A stretch of DNA of 6,832 nt, taken from IMG/VR virus record IMGVR_UViG_2563366976_000004; one strand, given 5' to 3'. A program made the translations under genes and the position numbers. The stretch is from a virus. Its lineage: Duplodnaviria; Heunggongvirae; Uroviricota; Caudoviricetes. Below, piece after piece: positions 1,803-6,832 of the stretch (positions are counted from its first letter, which is position 1; each line of letters opens with the position of its first letter). The notes under the pieces are model-generated. The model did not search any database and had not been told where the DNA came from. It was given only the letters and a program-made list of their open reading frames with translations.

Positions 1803-4800
1803 ATGACAGTAAAAATTTCTGGCGTGCTTAAAGATGGCACAGGAAAACCAGTACAGAACTGCACCATTGTGCTGAAGGCCAGACGAACCAGCAGCACGGT
1901 GGTGGTGAACACGGTGGCCTCTGAAAATCCGGATGAAGCCGGACGTTACAGCATGGATGTTGAGCATGGCCAGTACAGCGTCACCCTGCTGGTTGAAGGT
2001 TTTCCGCCTTCACATGCCGGGACCATTACCGTCTATGAAGGTTCCAGACCAGGTACGCTGAATGATTTTCTCGGTGCCATGACGGAGGATGATGTCCGAC
2101 CGGAGGCACTGCGCCGCTTTGAGCAGATGGTGGAAGAGGTGTCACGTAACGCCTCCGCGGTTGCACAGAATACGGCAGCCGCGAAAAAATCAGCCAGCGA
2201 TGCCAGTGCATCAGCCAGCGAGGCGGCAACTCATGCAACCGATGCTGCAGCCTCAGCACGTGCCGCCAGCACGTCAGCCGGACAGGCCGCGTCGTCGGCT
2301 CAGTCAGCGTCTTCCAGCGCAGGAACGGCATCGACAAAGGCCCGTGAAGCAGCAAAAAGTGCTGCTGCTGCAGAGTCATCAAAAAGCGCGGCAGCTACCA
2401 GCGCCAGTGCCGCGAAAACGTCAGAAACGAATGCCGCAGCATCACAAAAATCGGCAGCCACTTCTGCATCCACAGCGACCACGAAGGCGTCAGAAGCTGC
2501 CACCTCGGCACGGGGTGCGGCGGCCTCAAAAGAGGCAGCGAAATCTTCAGAAACGAATGCATCATCAAGTGCCAGTAGTGCAGCTTCCTCGGCAACGGCG
2601 GCAGGAAATTCCGCGAAGGCGGCAAAAACGTCCGAGACGAACGCTAAGTCTTCTGAAACAGCAGCGGGACAGAGCGCCTCAGCTGCGGCAGGTTCAAAAA
2701 CAGCGGCTGCATTATCTGCCAGTGCCGCGTCAACAAGTGCCGGGCAGGCCTCAGCCAGTGCCACCGCCGCCGGAAAATCGGCAGAAAGCGCCGCATCATC
2801 CGCTTCAACAGCCACAACGAAGGCTGGCAAAGCCACTGAGCAAGCCACTGCAGCAGCGAGGTCTGCTTCTGCAGCAAAAACCTCTGAAACAAATGCAAAG
2901 ACTTCAGCAGACAATGCTGCTTCCTCTAAGGCGGCAGCCGCATCGTCAGCCAGTTCAGCGGCGTCATCGGCATCATCTGCGTCTGCTTCAAAAGATGAGG
3001 CGACCAGACAAGCGTCAGCAGCGAAAGGTAGTGCCACGACAGCAACAACGAAAGCATCAGAGGCGGCAGGCAGTGCGACGGCTGCATCTCAGAGCAAAGT
3101 TGCTGCTGAATCCGCGGCAACGCGCGCCGAGACAGCAGCAAAACGGGCAGAGGATATTGCATCCGCCGTGGCGCTGGAGGATGCGAGCACGACGAAAAAG
3201 GGGATAGTACAGCTCAGCAGTGCAACAAACAGCACCAGTGAAAAGCTGGCGGCAACGCCAAAGGCAGTTAAAACTGTTAAAGATAGTTCAGTTCAAAAAA
3301 CTGGCGACACAATGGGAGGGCAGTTAAAAATCAGCACGATAAATGCTCTTCGAATATTCAACCAAGCCTTTGGCCTTATTTTTAGGCGTTCCGAAGATCA
3401 TCTTCATCTTATTCCGACTAATGAAGGGGAGGGGGAAAATGGAGACATCGGTTCATTAAGACCATTCTCTATAAACTTAAGATCAGGGTTGGTGTCCATC
3501 GGTAATGGACTAAAAGTTGGTGGTAGTGTTACTGGTAATTTGACCGGAAACGCAGATACTGCGACCAAGATCAAGACAGCACGTAAGATTGGGGGCGTGG
3601 CATTTGATGGATCGGCAGATATCAACTTGCCTGGAGTCAACGCTACCGGTAATCAAAACACTACAGGTAATGCTGCGACCGCCACGAAACTTCAGGCAGC
3701 CAGAACGATTAACGGTGTGTCATTTGATGGTAGTGCAAATATCACATTGACCCCTTCAAATATTGGGGCATTGGCATTAACTGGAGGGACTCTTTCAGGT
3801 GGTTTAACTGCTGCTGGTGAGGTTATTTCAAGGTCAGCAAATGGTCTGCGTATTGCCTATGGCAACTATGGATTCTTTATCCGAAATGATGGATCAAACA
3901 CATATTTTATGTTGACAGATTCGGGTAACAGTCTTGGTACGCACAATAGCTTAAGGCCGTTTATAATTAGTAACCATACTGGCAATGTTACAATTGCAAC
4001 TAAATTAAACGCGAGTGGTGGTATCACTGGATCTTTATCGGGTAATGCAAGCACAGCAACCAAATTGCAAACTGCAAGGACAATTAACGGCGTAAAATTT
4101 GACGGCTCGGCAAATATTGAAGCGTTTCCGCCAGGTGTTCCGCTGCCGTGGCCATCAGATACACCACCTGCAGGTTATGCGATCATGCAGGGGCAGACGT
4201 TTGATAAGGCAGCATATCCGAAACTGGCTATTGCCTATCCTTCAGGTGTTATTCCAGATATGCGCGGCTGGACAATCAAGGGCAAACCCGCCAGTGGCCG
4301 GGCCGTATTGTCTCAGGAACAGGACGGCATAAAATCGCACACCCACAGCGCCAGCGCATCCAGTACGGATTTGGGGACGAAAACCACATCGTCGTTTGAT
4401 TACGGCACTAAATCCACGAATAACACCGGGGCGCATACGCACAGTCTGAGTGGCTCTACGGGGTCTGCCGGTGTTCATACTCATGGTAATGGTATTCGTT
4501 GGCCAGGAGGCGGCGGTTCTGCGTTAGCATTTTATGATGGCGGTGGGTTCACTTATGTCCAGAATTCACAGTATCAAGTAAGCCCGGAGACTTCTTCCTA
4601 TAGATCGTATTATCAACGTATTCAGACACAGTCAGCAGGTGCTCATACCCACTCGCTGTCTGGTACTGCAGCAAGTTCTGGCGCACATGCACATACTGTA
4701 GGTATTGGTGCGCATACGCACTCCGTTGCGATTGGTTCACATGGACACACCATCACCGTTAACGCTGCGGGTAACGCGGAAAACACCGTCAAAAACATCG

Positions 4801-4829
4801 CATTTAACTATATTGTGAGGCTTGCATAA
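1803..4829 (+). CDS. stf: Side tail fibre protein, long StfR-like variant (1008 aa)
   Basis: N-terminus [22 protein letters not shown]... and C-terminus ...[18 protein letters not shown] match lambda Stf / E. coli prophage Stf proteins as I recall them. It contains the conserved fibre motif [24 protein letters not shown], repeated GNAxTATKLQxARTINGVxFDGSANI units and C-terminal HxH repeats. SD GGTGGA lies upstream of the ATG; the stop TAA (4827-4829) overlaps the tfa start. Confidence 0.9.
2148..3182 (+). repeat. Ala/Ser/Thr-rich low-complexity repetitive region inside stf (about residues 116-460)
   Basis: About 345 codons dominated by A/S/T/K/E, with recurring degenerate units such as [18 protein letters not shown] and [10 protein letters not shown]. 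The matching GC-rich DNA repeats (e.g. aaaacgtcagaaacgaatgc near 2416, 2541, 2626, 2877) generate long spurious ORFs in the other frames. Confidence 0.8.
3546..4122 (+). repeat. Three copies of a ~28-aa tail-fibre repeat inside stf
   Basis: [28 protein letters not shown] (about 3546-3627), [28 protein letters not shown] (about 3666-3747) and [28 protein letters not shown] (about 4041-4122). Copies 1 and 3 are each preceded by a related ~60-aa unit (...[38 protein letters not shown]... versus ...[40 protein letters not shown]...). Confidence 0.6.
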
Positions 4830-5413
4830 TGGCATTCAGAATGAGTGAACAAGCACGGACCATAAAAATTTATAATCTGCTGGCCGGAACTAATGAATTT
4901 ATTGGTGAAGGTGACGCATATATTCCGCCTCATACAGGTCTGCCAGCAAACAGTACCGATATTGCACCACCAGATATTCCTGCTGGCTTTGTGGCTGTTT
5001 TCAACAGTGATGAGGCATCGTGGCATCTCGTTGAAGACCATCGGGGGAAAACGGTTTATGACGTAGCGTCAGGGGACGAGTTATTTATTTCTGAACTCGG
5101 TCCGTTACCGGAAAATGTTACCTGGTTATCGCCGGAAGGGGAGTTTCAGAAGTGGAACGGCACAGCCTGGGTGAAGGATACGGAAGCAGAAAAACTGTTC
5201 CGGATCCGGGAGGCGGAAGAAACAAAAAACAACCTGATGCAGGTAGCCAGTGAGCATATTGCGCCGCTTCAGGATGCTGCAGATCTGGAAATTGCAACGG
5301 AGGAAGAAACCTCATTGCTGGAAGCCTGGAAAAAGTATCGGGTGTTGCTGAACCGTGTTGATACATCAACTGCACCTGATATTGAGTGGCCTACGAACCC
5401 TGTCAGGGAGTAA
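4829..5413 (+). CDS. tfa: Tail fibre assembly protein Tfa (194 aa)
   Basis: Translation [54 protein letters not shown]... is nearly identical to lambda Tfa as I recall it, with the same 194-aa length. The start overlaps the stf stop in TAATG, suggesting translational coupling. Confidence 0.9.
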
Positions 5414-5462
5414 TCATTGGGATTATGCCGCAGCACGTCTTAAGCAAGAACGTGCTGCGGTT
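5248..5462 (+). repeat. Direct repeat copy A (tfa 3' end plus downstream hairpin)
   Basis: Aligns by eye with 6297-6512 at high identity (scattered substitutions plus one replaced 13-14-nt patch). The stretch cgtgttgatacatcaactgcacctgatattgagtggcct is identical in both copies. Confidence 0.85.
5428..5460. other. Perfect 11-bp-stem hairpin in the convergent tfa / methyltransferase intergenic region
   Basis: CCGCAGCACGT (5428-5438), 11-nt loop, ACGTGCTGCGG (5450-5460). A T6 run follows on the + strand only after about 10 nt (5471-5476), so it is not a canonical intrinsic terminator in either direction. Confidence 0.45.
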
Positions 5463-5467
5463 GGATG

Positions 5468-6136
5468 CTATTTTTTCCCTGAAGCGGAAAACATTACTAC
5501 AGTACCTTGAACCTTGGTTTTAACATTCTCGAAATGCTCTGAGAGTATATGTGTTAAGCCTTCTTCGGAATCTTTTGTGTTTGAAAAGATGCCTTTCTGA
5601 TTGTAAATGCGCATCAGTTTTTGACCGAAGCTATTGTGCACAACTCCATCGCCAAGAATTGTGGCTCCGTATAGAGTTCCATCGTCAGTTAAGGCCTGCG
5701 CCGCATTGCGTATTACACAGCTTTTTGTAGATATATTTCCAGGCAGGCAGTGAAGAAGGTAAAACATGGAAATGGAATCAAATTGACCATGTAACGCCGC
5801 GGGATAAGGTTCAAAAACATCATGGCTAATTTTATGTTTAATTTTTGATTCCCCAGCCCTTGTAGATGCCGCGTTCAGGCTAGCTTCGTTCAAATCCATT
5901 AAAGATATCAGACTACTCTCAGGTACGTGAGTAAGGTAAAACCCAGTTCCAACACCAATATCCAGATGGTTGTTACCTACATGTTCCAGAAAGTGTGGAA
6001 GAAGGTGTTCCTTTGTAGGACATCCCCATGCAAGCCGATTTGATACTCCCAAAACCCACCAGTCATAAAGCTTTAGGGTAAGTGGTGTGTAAATTTTAGC
6101 CCCATCATCTGTGTTTTTTTTCATTGATTTCACCAT
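5468..6136 (-). CDS. Class I (Rossmann-fold) SAM-dependent methyltransferase, substrate unknown; true start may be the ATG at 6124
   Basis: 222-aa ORF with motif I HLDIGVGTGF (encoded about 5939-5968), an acidic residue at the expected beta-2 position (LMDLN), a motif II/III-like stretch (HDVFEPYP...GQFDSISMFYLLHCLPG...ALTDDGTLY) and an N-terminal YDWW...RLAWG pattern common in small-molecule methyltransferases. No DPPY/NPPY or cytosine-C5 motifs, and no signal peptide or transmembrane segment. GGTGA lies 5 nt upstream of the internal ATG at 6122-6124, while the first ATG lacks an SD. Confidence 0.75.
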   Translation of the reverse strand: MVKSMKKNTDDGAKIYTPLTLKLYDWWVLGVSNRLAWGCPTKEHLLPHFLEHVGNNHLDIGVGTGFYLTHVPESSLISLMDLNEASLNAASTRAGESKIKHKISHDVFEPYPAALHGQFDSISMFYLLHCLPGNISTKSCVIRNAAQALTDDGTLYGATILGDGVVHNSFGQKLMRIYNQKGIFSNTKDSEEGLTHILSEHFENVKTKVQGTVVMFSASGKK

Positions 6137-6165
6137 GTTATAGTTTTATTTGTGAATTAAATCAA
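6137..6165 (-). promoter_or_regulatory. Putative sigma70 promoter for the methyltransferase (TTGATT-N17-TATAAC on the - strand)
   Basis: On the minus strand, TTGATT (complement of 6160-6165), a 17-nt spacer, then TATAAC (complement of 6137-6142) abutting the first ATG. This would place the transcription start inside the first codons and favour initiation at the second ATG (6124), which carries the GGTGA SD. Confidence 0.3.
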
Positions 6166-6192
6166 TTATGGCGATGAATTACAAGGGGTTAA

Positions 6193-6462
6193 ATGCTGCC
6201 GCAGCATAGCGATATTGAAATAGCCTGGTATGCTTCGATACAGCAGGAGCCGAATGGCTGGAAGACCGTCACCACACAGTTCCACATCCAGGAATTCAGT
6301 GAGTATATTGCGCCACTGCAGGATGCTGTAGATCTGGAAATCGCAACGGAGGAAGAAAGATCGTTGCTGGAGGCATGGAATAAATATCGGGTATTGTTGA
6401 ATCGTGTTGATACATCAACTGCACCTGATATTGAGTGGCCTGCAAATCCTGTCAGGGAGTAA
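6193..6462 (+). pseudogene. Truncated tfa-like ORF (89 aa): unrelated 35-aa N-terminus fused to the Tfa C-terminal ~54 aa
   Basis: The C-terminal part [52 protein letters not shown] parallels the Tfa C-terminus ([52 protein letters not shown]). DNA homology with tfa begins near 6297. An AAGGGG SD lies 4 nt upstream of the ATG, so expression is possible. Confidence 0.55.
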
Positions 6463-6512
6463 TCATTGGGATTATGCCGCAGATACGTCGTATGCAGGAA
6501 CGTGCTGCGGTT
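6297..6512 (+). repeat. Direct repeat copy B (tfa 3' end plus downstream hairpin region)
   Basis: Second copy of 5248-5462, in the same orientation. The 13-nt central patch of the hairpin (CACGTCTTAAGCA) is replaced by 14 nt (ATACGTCGTATGCA), which weakens the stem. Confidence 0.85.
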
Positions 6513-6620
6513 AGTTTGTGAGCTTTCGATAGTGGTTGTTATTTTTGCCCTTATTTGTTCCGGAGGCCATGGTTCAATGGTCCGTCTGCCCCCTGTGGTG
6601 ATGTCAGCAAAATCAGCCAC

Positions 6621-6832
6621 TGAACCGCCCCGGGAATCCTGGAGACTAAACTTCCTGAGAAAGAGGTAAACAGGATGACTAAAAATACTCGTTTTTCCCC
6701 CGAAGTCCGTCAACGGGCAGTCCGTATGGTTCTGGAAAGTCAGAGCGAATATGACTCACAATGGGCGACAATTTGTTCCATTGCTCCAAAGATTGGCTGT
6801 ACGCCGGAGACTCTGCGTGTCTGGGTTCGCCA
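6621..6832 (+). mobile_element. IS3-family insertion sequence, IS629/IS1203-like, left end (continues past the window)
   Basis: The sequence from 6621 (TGAACCGCCCCGGGAATCCTGGAGACTAAACTTCCTGAGAAAGAGGTAAACAGGATGACTAAAAATAC) matches my recollection of the IS629 left inverted repeat and orfA leader. IS3-family ends typically begin with TGA. Confidence 0.85.
6675..6832 (+). CDS. IS3-family transposase OrfA, N-terminal part (3' end outside the window)
   Basis: ATG at 6675 preceded by the SD GAGG. Translation [52 protein letters not shown] is the helix-turn-helix OrfA N-terminus of IS629-like elements as recalled. Confidence 0.85.

Follow-up and report, generated by a model that had tools for sequence, protein, structure and literature searches.

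Diverged direct repeats of the tfa 3' end flank a YbcY-type methyltransferase gene: a probable moron and recombination scar in a lambda-like prophage

In IMG/VR record IMGVR_UViG_2563366976_000004, a reverse-strand methyltransferase gene lies directly behind the tail fibre assembly gene tfa, and the 3' end of tfa recurs on its far side. This arrangement raises the question of how a cargo gene came to sit between two copies of the end of a structural gene, and whether it can leave again by way of those copies. We addressed it in the whole 6,832-nucleotide stretch of DNA (hereafter the window; Table 1) and in matching phage and E. coli sequences. The literature found on ybcY, tfaX, IS009, and CssrB consisted of genome-scale listings, with none on the repeat structure.

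Table 1. Positions and descriptions of the features at the tfa-ybcY locus of the window
Feature	Position	Strand	Description
tfa	4829..5413	+	194 aa, intact; lambda orf-194-type tail fibre assembly chaperone; from the ORF list
Repeat copy A	5237..5462	+	Last 177 bp of tfa (conserved C-terminal domain) and 49 bp of 3' non-coding DNA
Hairpin hpA	5427..5461		CCGCAG-C-ACGT, 11-nt loop, ACGT-G-CTGCGG; between convergent tfa and ybcY
ybcY	5468..6136	-	YbcY-family class I SAM-dependent methyltransferase; Pfam, PHROG, AlphaFold
Divergent promoter region	6137..6194	both	Predicted sigma-70-like hexamers
tfa' ORF	6193..6462	+	TfaX / phrog_2341 type, 89 aa; residues 32-89 are the Tfa C-terminal domain
Inner junction	6285..6286		ybcY upstream spacer / tfa relic; non-homologous, same in every copy examined
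Repeat copy B	6286..6512	+	tfa 3' relic and hairpin hpB (6477-6510)
Post-repeat sequence	6513..6620	+	Directly follows tfa-hairpin in empty alleles; start of a DUF4376-type pseudogene relic running to attR in ompW
IS3-family insertion sequence, left end	6621..6832	+	orfA start 6675; outside the repeat structure, interrupts the downstream relic

Within the window, BLAST showed that 5237-5462 recurs at 6286-6512 with 88.1% identity over 227 columns. The repeat search reported one long direct pair, 5237-5433 and 6286-6482 (197 nt, 89%), which continues as 5435-5462 and 6485-6512 (28 nt, 89%); the spacing shifts from 1049 to 1050, indicating one 1-bp indel between the copies, and a MAFFT alignment of copies A and B was concordant with BLAST. 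The pair is not a chance match, because the window-wide search found no further repeat longer than 33 nt. Furthermore, the same repeat pair was found in hundreds of genomes. The initial annotation had claimed that the tfa 3' end and its downstream sequence recur in the same orientation, and all three methods confirmed this; its limits (5248-5462 and 6297-6512) were right at the 3' end and approximately 11 nt short at the 5' end. The repeated DNA comprises the terminal 177 bp of tfa, with stop codons at 5411-5413 (copy A) and 6460-6462 (copy B), and 49-50 bp of 3' non-coding DNA with the hairpin. Between the copies lie 823 bp (5463-6285) that hold the methyltransferase ORF and 149 bp of its upstream sequence with sigma-70-like hexamers, placing the cargo gene and its promoter exactly between the copies, as had been proposed. 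To the left of 5237 and 6286, no significant similarity was detected: a local alignment of 6190-6293 with 5140-5244 scored 16, which was matched by 533 of 2000 shuffles. A leftward extension of copy B was rejected. The Rfam IS009 model aligns 6216-6285 to tfa, but with low posterior probability, the local alignment does no better than shuffles, and tblastn places residues 1-31 of the tfa' ORF solely in ybcY-linked copies, setting the start of the repeat at 6286.

Copy A belongs to a complete gene. The tfa product matches Pfam Caudo_TAP (E=1.9e-44), the gene is 92% identical to lambda tfa at the DNA level, and the protein, WP_000885577.1, is identical in an occupied and an empty allele. The repeated coding part corresponds to Caudo_TAP profile positions 75-130. 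Compared with the two-domain chaperone, copy B has these positions only and lacks the variable N-terminal fibre-binding domain. In Tfa proteins the C-terminal domain is conserved and the N-terminal domain variable (PMC9608196). Matches in tblastn came from the Tfa of P2, Mu, APSE, and Ralstonia phages, all starting at residue 27-43 of the tfa' ORF; residues 1-31 showed no tfa homology in tblastn and matched no full-length Tfa. In RefSeq, 6286-6462 is listed as a pseudogene of a tail fibre assembly protein with a missing N-terminus. Judged by its sequence, copy B is a relic or an ORF for the C-terminal domain only.

How the two copies arose can be read partly from their differences. Copies A and B differ by 11 synonymous and 5 amino-acid changes, and this mostly synonymous divergence indicates that copy B derives from a different functional tfa allele. 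The earlier view that the diverged copies reflect no recent event, or a distinct phage source, therefore holds in the form of different tfa alleles, with no recent duplication in place. Had one phage duplicated its tfa 3' end in tandem and later received ybcY between the copies, an insert flanked by direct repeats at one locus would also result. Nevertheless, we consider this in-place duplication very unlikely: the copies differ by 12%, mainly at synonymous sites, as expected of two working-gene alleles and not of a decaying duplicate, B-type sequence accompanies ybcY in phages without an adjacent full tfa, and the surroundings of ybcY carry no transposition signature. The repeat search of the window found no inverted repeats flanking 5463-6285. 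Transposon- or IS-borne cargo was likewise rejected, given this lack of inverted repeats, flanking repeats of 226 bp that are 12% diverged, and a sole transposase in the window that belongs to a separate IS3-family element.

All 56 of 56 copies examined align from 6137 through the inner junction at 6285/6286. Because this junction is non-homologous and identical in all of them, a single illegitimate join gave rise to the structure. Towards its right-hand end, on the other hand, copy B is a chimera that continues, depending on the phage, into one of at least three distinct tfa 3' ends; four kinds of ending were seen, two of which are the 3' ends of other tfa alleles (the PTSPAE type and the K-12 type). 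These chimeric right ends point to homologous exchange inside copy B. Homologous recombination between tfa 3' ends, by which the initial annotation had explained the gain of the cargo, is thus supported for exchange inside copy B, but cannot alone make the duplication, given the non-homologous inner junction.

In twenty complete genomes with this ompW-integrated prophage, an intact tfa runs straight into the sequence from 6513 onwards, so the empty site that had been suggested as a check exists in related prophages at the same chromosomal locus. Their order is J-lom-stf-tfa-hairpin-DUF4376'-ompW', with no cargo; compared with the window, they show 99.7% identity in stf-tfa and no difference in the right flank. 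The empty alleles fall into two right-flank haplotypes, each 0-3 differences away from the occupied alleles that share it, which shows at least two independent events. They are chimeric, beginning as A-type sequence and turning into B-type towards the 3' side at switch points that differ. Some occupied loci have a copy A with B-type terminal codons, and tfa alleles without ybcY linkage can share the 'ACGAAC' variant of copy A; the module is not alone in having the diagnostic variants. Insertion or deletion alike would need one crossover within a 35-45 bp interval. Recombination between the repeats had been predicted to delete the cassette and fuse tfa to the downstream region. Fused empty alleles do exist, but the data are compatible with either deletion products or never-occupied ancestors.

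The right flank also bears on whether the two tfa-like segments could belong to two adjacent prophages, the case named at the outset as one that would overturn the inserted-cassette reading. On one IMG/VR contig (L069), ompT is followed by another, nearly full tfa-hairpin-ybcY, which may be a tandem or nested element. At the window locus, however, copy B has only 177 bp of tfa and is followed by approximately 0.6 kb of relic DNA, attR in ompW (ompW'), and yciE, with no second phage gene set, and tandem prophages are scarcely credible there. The post-repeat sequence 6513-6620 is identical or shows one difference in L001 and L008-L011. All E. coli matches to the window end at 6622, where the insertion sequence takes over; it matches Pfam HTH_Tnp_1 and has 100% identical copies on plasmids, annotated as IS3 family transposase.

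Taken together, the locus is very probably a moron at the tail-fibre operon end of an ompW-integrated lambda-like prophage, with the repeats a recombination scar and not a target-site duplication. The order of events that we infer is as follows. The cargo would be a small, host-derived YbcY-family methyltransferase gene with its own sigma-70 promoter, convergent with tfa and with one hairpin shared between the two stops. A single ancient, unequal, non-homologous join may have linked a tfa-hairpin-ybcY phage to the middle of the tfa of a different phage, and its product would have had an intact tfa at the left and a 177-bp tfa 3' relic with hairpin at the right. The repeated segment, which is the sole part of Tfa conserved across phages, and the conserved end-of-operon hairpin could then have acted as portable homology. 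Homologous crossovers in the tfa 3' block or hairpin would have brought the ybcY module together with many different tail-fibre modules and right arms, and the same crossovers could remove it cleanly, with an intact tfa remaining. Both the spread and the loss of the module were probably due to such exchange.

Such a history would explain how a very common E. coli prophage passenger gene is linked to many tail-fibre modules and yet can be lost cleanly. The cassette interior is present in 3,844 of 5,426 complete E. coli genomes (approximately 71%), and the exact arrangement of the window in 762. The tfa-ybcY-tfa' arrangement also occurs in phages PhiR26_1 and 2G7b. To the left of the module, PhiR68_2 and Turner have the 35-bp hairpin only, and a tfa 3' end on that side is therefore not obligatory for the module.

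The K-12 prophage DLP12 has the same module in the same order, tfaD - ybcY (pseudogene) - tfaX - appY - ompT, with an identical spacer/tfa' junction, 96.9% DNA identity to window positions 4975-6439, and the same ybcY promoter hexamers. It differs in that its ybcY is frameshifted, whereas that of the window is intact, and in that its tfaX is ended by an in-frame stop at 61 aa and is a third tfa allele from approximately 6355. Moreover, the K-12 relic is cut at 6439, without hairpin B, and joined to appY, while the window retains the full 3' relic and hairpin B and, unlike DLP12, a right arm of DUF4376' and attR in ompW. The window is thus the intact form of the DLP12 arrangement, whose decayed copy was already annotated. 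Copy A matches Rfam IS009 with 225 bits (gathering score 117) over a region that is tfa coding sequence, and copy B with 113.6, under the gathering score. Both K-12 'tfaX' and the Rfam 'IS009' match are best read as fragments of tfa, and neither as a gene in its own right nor as a small RNA.

Regarding the cargo itself, the true start of ybcY is probably the ATG at 6124 (218 aa), which is preceded by GGTG; homologues are 218-224 aa long. The product matches Pfam Methyltransf_12/23/25/11 above cut-offs, and residues 5-222 match the full 218-position profile of phrog_2132 ('unknown function'). Its AlphaFold model (pLDDT 90.6) has a Rossmann fold, and the SAM-binding motif I LDIGVGTG occupies residues 58-65, with D59, G61, G63, and G65 invariant in 30 homologues. 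Foldseek returned class I methyltransferases at probability 1.00, the top neighbours being bacterial phosphatidylethanolamine N-methyltransferase, juvenile hormone acid methyltransferase (JHAMT), and natural-product methyltransferases. Sequence matches were sub-threshold in NCBIfam (CpaM, RquA, PmtA) and had E ~1e-3 against PDB sequences. The modelled fold suggests a small-molecule or lipid methyltransferase and not a DNA methylase. The (D/N/S)PP(Y/F/W) motif and the PC and ENV motifs are absent from the 222-aa sequence. A DNA methylase or anti-restriction role was rejected, as the closest matches among solved structures act on lipids, small molecules, and natural products and PADLOC gave a 12.9-bit match only. 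The gene has a G+C content of 41%, against 48% for tfa and 52% for stf, and Salmonella and Enterobacter have homologues with 56-68% identity on the chromosome, outside prophages. The reading frame is uninterrupted in 45 of 46 copies, and pN/pS is approximately 0.4.

Upstream of ybcY, two minus-strand hexamer pairs are predicted, TTGATT-17-TATAAC (6165->6137) and TTAACC-16-CATAAT (6192->6165), together with ATGGCG-15-TTAAAT (6168-6194) on the plus strand. The hexamers at 6137-6192 are identical to those of the K-12 ybcY promoter selected by genomic SELEX, where the same pairs in the ybcY/tfaX spacer are listed as a constitutive RpoD promoter site with H-NS binding, and a plus-strand promoter is also predicted (PMC3946193). 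By analogy with K-12, ybcY may be expressed in the lysogen.

The tfa' ORF might exceed a passive scar, because it is mostly intact (48 of 56 copies) and has a pN/pS of 0.34. It could be a retained gene, encoding a chaperone of the Tfa C-terminal domain alone, co-selected with ybcY as a divergent pair and possibly interfering with the tail-fibre assembly of competing phages. An AAGGGG Shine-Dalgarno-like motif lies 4 nt ahead of its ATG, the plus-strand promoter predicted in K-12 could serve it, and tail-assembly-blocking prophage proteins, Tai and Tab, are known (PMC11364771). We nevertheless regard this as improbable. RefSeq calls it a pseudogene; it is broken in approximately 14% of copies against 2% for ybcY, although ybcY is 2.5 times longer; its 3' end exists in four versions, including read-through into unrelated sequence; the plus-strand predicted -10 hexamer overlaps its start codon; PADLOC gave no match to it; and the low pN/pS could stem from functional tfa alleles that recombination brought in. 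A broader conjecture, which we hold to be unlikely, is that the hairpin and the conserved Tfa C-domain block form a selected 'landing pad' for a cargo slot that lambdoid phages share at their late-operon end, with reverse-strand passengers (ybcY here, ea47 in lambda) gained, swapped, or lost as units between copies, and with the 89-aa C-domain-only Tfa ORF maybe expressed, for example as a decoy against the fibre assembly of competing phages.

Lambda offers a parallel. Like ybcY, the b-region gene ea47 is a reverse-strand accessory gene right after tfa, between direct hairpin copies (22573-22606 and 24162-24195), and it has 'empty' relatives in which tfa-hairpin runs straight into the post-hp2 sequence; unlike here, the duplication is a 35-60 bp hairpin element only, with no tfa 3' block, and the cargo is unrelated to ybcY. 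Reverse-strand cargo bracketed by direct hairpin copies in both cases, the hairpin-only left junctions of PhiR68_2 and Turner, and a locus (L025) in which hpA is joined to lambda post-hp2 sequence would suit a hairpin acting as a site-specific recombinase site, with ybcY, like ea47 in lambda, an integron-style cassette. However, the switch points in empty alleles and chimeric copies are scattered in the tfa coding block with no fixed hairpin point, no dedicated recombinase is linked (pin occurs in some contexts only, and the integrases differ), and the L025 junction sits in microhomology past the stem; we judge such a cassette highly improbable. Pin-type inversion at this locus was also rejected, as the window has no invertase and the copies are direct.

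Returning to the recombination scar in a moron, morons in the sense of Juhala and Hendrix are known from lambdoid phages, including lambda lom and bor, HK97 gp15, and O157 prophage effector genes downstream of tail-fibre genes. Like these, the window has an extra gene of deviant G+C between conserved neighbours; its predicted promoter and terminator-like hairpin would be further points in common, and, as with morons that are present or absent among otherwise collinear phages, 20 cargo-free ompW prophages were found. It differs in being bracketed by 226-bp repeats from the neighbouring structural gene, which is not general among morons. Invertible tail-fibre segments (Mu G, P1 C, and e14/Rac/Qin pin) likewise have partial or alternative tfa copies downstream of a tail-fibre gene, and they precede the ybcY module in some phages. 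Their copies, however, are inverted and switched by Pin/Gin/Cin, and, unlike them, copy B lacks the fibre-binding N-terminal domain. On this reading, the tfa-repeat structure is an ordinary recombination scar of lambda-like phages and opens no new mechanism.

The hairpin hpA lies 14 nt past the tfa stop and 6 nt past the ybcY stop. Its predicted RNA fold reaches approximately -24 kcal/mol on each strand (z = -3.96 and -3.63), and one stem pair covaries across phages. There is no canonical U-tract on the minus strand and a weak one only on the plus strand, so that any terminator role of the hairpin is putative. Rfam CssrB is matched through its 3'-terminal hairpin alone, over all 32 nt and with 36 bits against a gathering score of 76. 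Many lambdoid phages have this hairpin where the tail-fibre operon ends, and in lambda two copies of it bracket ea47. It may thus serve as a landmark for the tail-fibre operon end and for cargo boundaries in the annotation and engineering of lambdoid phages.

The window covers the end of a lambda-like prophage; the features discussed here are listed in the table. A repeat search of the window returned a single long direct pair (5237-5433 and 6286-6482, 89%), extended with a shift of one base by 5435-5462 and 6485-6512. By BLAST, the resulting copies A (5237-5462) and B (6286-6512) share 88.1% identity over 227 columns. The repeat consists of the final 177 bp of tfa and 49-50 bp of non-coding DNA; left of 5237 and 6286, the two sequences are no more similar than shuffles. 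The repeat coordinates of the initial annotation proved correct to about 11 nt by repeat search, BLAST, and alignment, and the cargo, a ybcY-type methyltransferase gene, lies with its upstream region (5463-6285) exactly between the copies, as had been claimed.

Features of the window and of the lambda locus (L002)
Feature	Position	Strand or orientation	Remark
J C-terminus	172-984
lom	1052-1651
stf	1803-4829
tfa	4829-5413
Hairpin A	5427-5461		in non-coding part of copy A
222-codon ORF (cargo)	5468-6136	minus
89-codon ORF (tfa')	6193-6462	plus
Hairpin B	6477-6510		in non-coding part of copy B
IS3-family element, left end	6621-6832		orfA from 6675
Lambda hairpin copies	L002 3101-3134, 4690-4723	direct

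The repeated coding block corresponds to positions 75-130 of the Pfam profile Caudo_TAP. When the 89-aa tfa' ORF was compared by tblastn with 50,697 phage records, the Tfa proteins of P2-, Mu-, APSE-, and Ralstonia-type phages matched only from residue 27-43 onward. This confinement to the C-terminal part fits the published picture of Tfa, in which the fibre-binding N-domain is variable and the C-terminal domain is conserved (PMC9608196). Residues 1-31 of tfa' had no match outside ybcY-linked copies. An AAGGGG motif stands 4 nt upstream of the ATG of this ORF (phrog_2341), whose reading frame is unbroken in 48 of 56 copies at other loci (pN/pS 0.34).

Divergence between copies A and B is mostly synonymous (11 synonymous positions, only 5 amino acids different); both copies therefore evolved inside functional tfa genes, with copy B derived from a different allele. 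The junction between ybcY spacer and tfa relic (6285/6286) is non-homologous and the same in 56/56 retrieved copies, and for these reasons it points to one illegitimate join. The right end of copy B, on the other side, takes four forms: the full 3' end with hairpin B, the form of the window (29 copies); the 3' end of another tfa allele ("...PTSPAE"), followed by a hairpin of another kind (12-15 copies); a K-12 type, with a third allele from about 6355 and cut at 6439; and one cut at 6417 that continues into a hydrolase-ompT island. Forms two and three are chimeras from crossovers within the conserved block. To its left, the module is preceded by a full tfa, by tfa relics (96, 117, or 144 bp) that follow unrelated fibre modules, by a truncated pin plus relic, or by the hairpin only (PhiR68_2 and Turner). 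Copy A of some loci occupied by ybcY carries terminal codons typical of copy B, which indicates conversion between copies. The repeat is real and was rightly read as a recombination scar around the cargo gene. Homologous exchange at tfa 3' ends, the mechanism proposed initially, therefore accounts for the spread and probably the loss of the module, but not for the origin of the duplication, whose inner junction is non-homologous.

Empty sites had also been predicted. Complete E. coli genomes were searched with a synthetic "empty" query and then with a more selective one, and 20 genomes were found in which intact tfa leads through the hairpin directly into the 6513+ sequence at the same chromosomal site. 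Over stf-tfa, the empty allele of EFF60 and the window have about 11 differences in 4,000 positions, and the Tfa protein and 109-bp right flank are identical in both. In the four aligned empty alleles (L008-L011), the repeat starts as A-type at the 5' end and changes to B-type towards the 3' end, after 5396 in EFF60 and, patchily, left of 5391 in the other three. Empty alleles occur on two very different right-flank haplotypes, and on each they differ from occupied alleles of that haplotype at 0-3 positions in 640 bp; at least two independent gain or loss events must therefore have taken place. As to their direction, the marker variants are found outside the ybcY module too, and insertion and deletion alike need one crossover within 35-45 bp; that empty alleles are rare (20 vs 762 genomes with the exact window arrangement) mildly favours deletion as their origin. 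Other losses of ybcY were seen in two IMG/VR loci: in L042 (3658-3842), hairpin A and the last 32 bp of ybcY are followed by unrelated DNA, and in L025 (6020-6260), a short microhomology links hairpin A to the sequence found after the second lambda hairpin copy (hp2).

The arrangement is widespread, annotated already in K-12, and mechanistically ordinary for lambdoid mosaicism. The K-12 DLP12 prophage (tfaD - ybcY pseudogene - tfaX - appY - ompT) is 96.9% identical to window 4975-6439, and the module is also present in the sequenced phages PhiR26_1, PhiR29, 2G7b, ev243, PhiR68_2, Turner, and Kati. Among 5,426 complete E. coli genomes, 3,844 have the cassette interior, in 1-4 copies per genome. 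In IMG/VR locus L069 (6650-12687), tfa-hairpin-ybcY-tfa'-hydrolase-ompT comes before a further tfa that is nearly full (aa 32-194, 71%), a hairpin, and another ybcY 3' end; the extra part is a second module, nested or in tandem, or else a DLP12-like remnant next to the first.

The cargo encodes a class I SAM methyltransferase (Pfam Methyltransf_12/23/25; phrog_2132, function unknown), probably with ATG 6124 as its start, the point at which the PHROG profile and homologues begin. The structures nearest to its confident model (pLDDT 90.6) are bacterial phosphatidylethanolamine N-methyltransferase, juvenile hormone acid methyltransferase (JHAMT), and natural-product methyltransferases. The protein sequence has no DNA-methylase motif, and defence-system models gave only a negligible 12.9-bit match. 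Genes for homologues at 56-68% identity occur singly on the chromosomes of Salmonella and Enterobacter, in non-prophage settings; of those at 56-65% identity, the Salmonella genes (L012/L013, 5001-5660) adjoin a PMT_2 glycosyltransferase and cytochrome b561, and the Enterobacter genes (L014-L016, 5001-5660) a DUF4156 lipoprotein. The neighbourhoods are unrelated, with no conserved operon hinting at a substrate. The gene has a G+C of 41% vs 48-52% in its neighbours, and the spacer carries TTGATT-17-TATAAC on the cargo strand, the hexamer pair of the K-12 ybcY promoter from a genomic SELEX screen, where H-NS binding was also reported (PMC3946193). Intact ybcY was found in 45/46 collected copies, the sole broken one being that of K-12. 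Taken together, these properties, with the predicted promoter, would make ybcY a moron.

The strong hairpin of both copies follows the consensus CCGCAG-N1-2-ACGT-11 nt-ACGT-N-CTGCGG, and hairpin A folds at about -24 kcal/mol (z about -4) on both strands. Covariation is seen at one stem pair (C-G 136, A-T 16, T-G 8, mismatch 2, as sequence counts rather than independent events). In lambda, the element occurs twice, after tfa and 1,589 bp beyond, bracketing the reverse-strand ea47, and several phages show an "ea47-empty" state in which tfa-hairpin leads directly into the lambda post-hp2 sequence. A 66-nt hp2-type element is found in 157 phage records, including HK633, Rac-SA53, and many Stx phages, and lies between tfa and sib/attP in HK97. 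In 120 IMG/VR stretches, the element directly follows tfa, follows pin where the phage has invertible fibre segments, or shortly precedes the integrase. It is conserved and, in many lambdoid phages, marks where the tail-fibre operon ends. The 3'-terminal hairpin of Rfam CssrB (Shigella sRNA B) equals window 5428-5459 in 32/32 nt (36 bits vs a gathering score of 76), and the rest of that model had no match in the window or the related loci searched; that CssrB ends exactly in the hairpin suggests that the element forms transcript 3' ends. The Rfam model IS009 (listed as "Gene"), scoring 225 bits on copy A (5172-5370) and 113.6 on copy B (6216-6419; gathering score 117), is in effect the 3' coding part of lambda-type tfa.

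The top match among complete E. coli genomes is 100% identical to the window as far as 6622 and shows the locus as a prophage integrated in ompW beside yciE-trp, where only a short DUF4376-type pseudogene and attR follow the second tfa-like piece. The IS3-family left end breaks into the relic that follows copy B; 0/5,426 complete E. coli genomes carry an IS at that position, all best matches ending at 6622. As labelled by RefSeq, the relic would be a DUF4376-domain pseudogene (L008 5682-5951, window 6559 onward); a Pfam scan gave no significant match (best DUF5646, E=0.013). Within stf, 2100-3150 is a long Ala/Ser/Thr-rich low-complexity stretch (G+C about 58-62%) containing six members of a diverged family of 33-nt repeats (64-100% identity), and it gives rise to long spurious ORFs in other frames.
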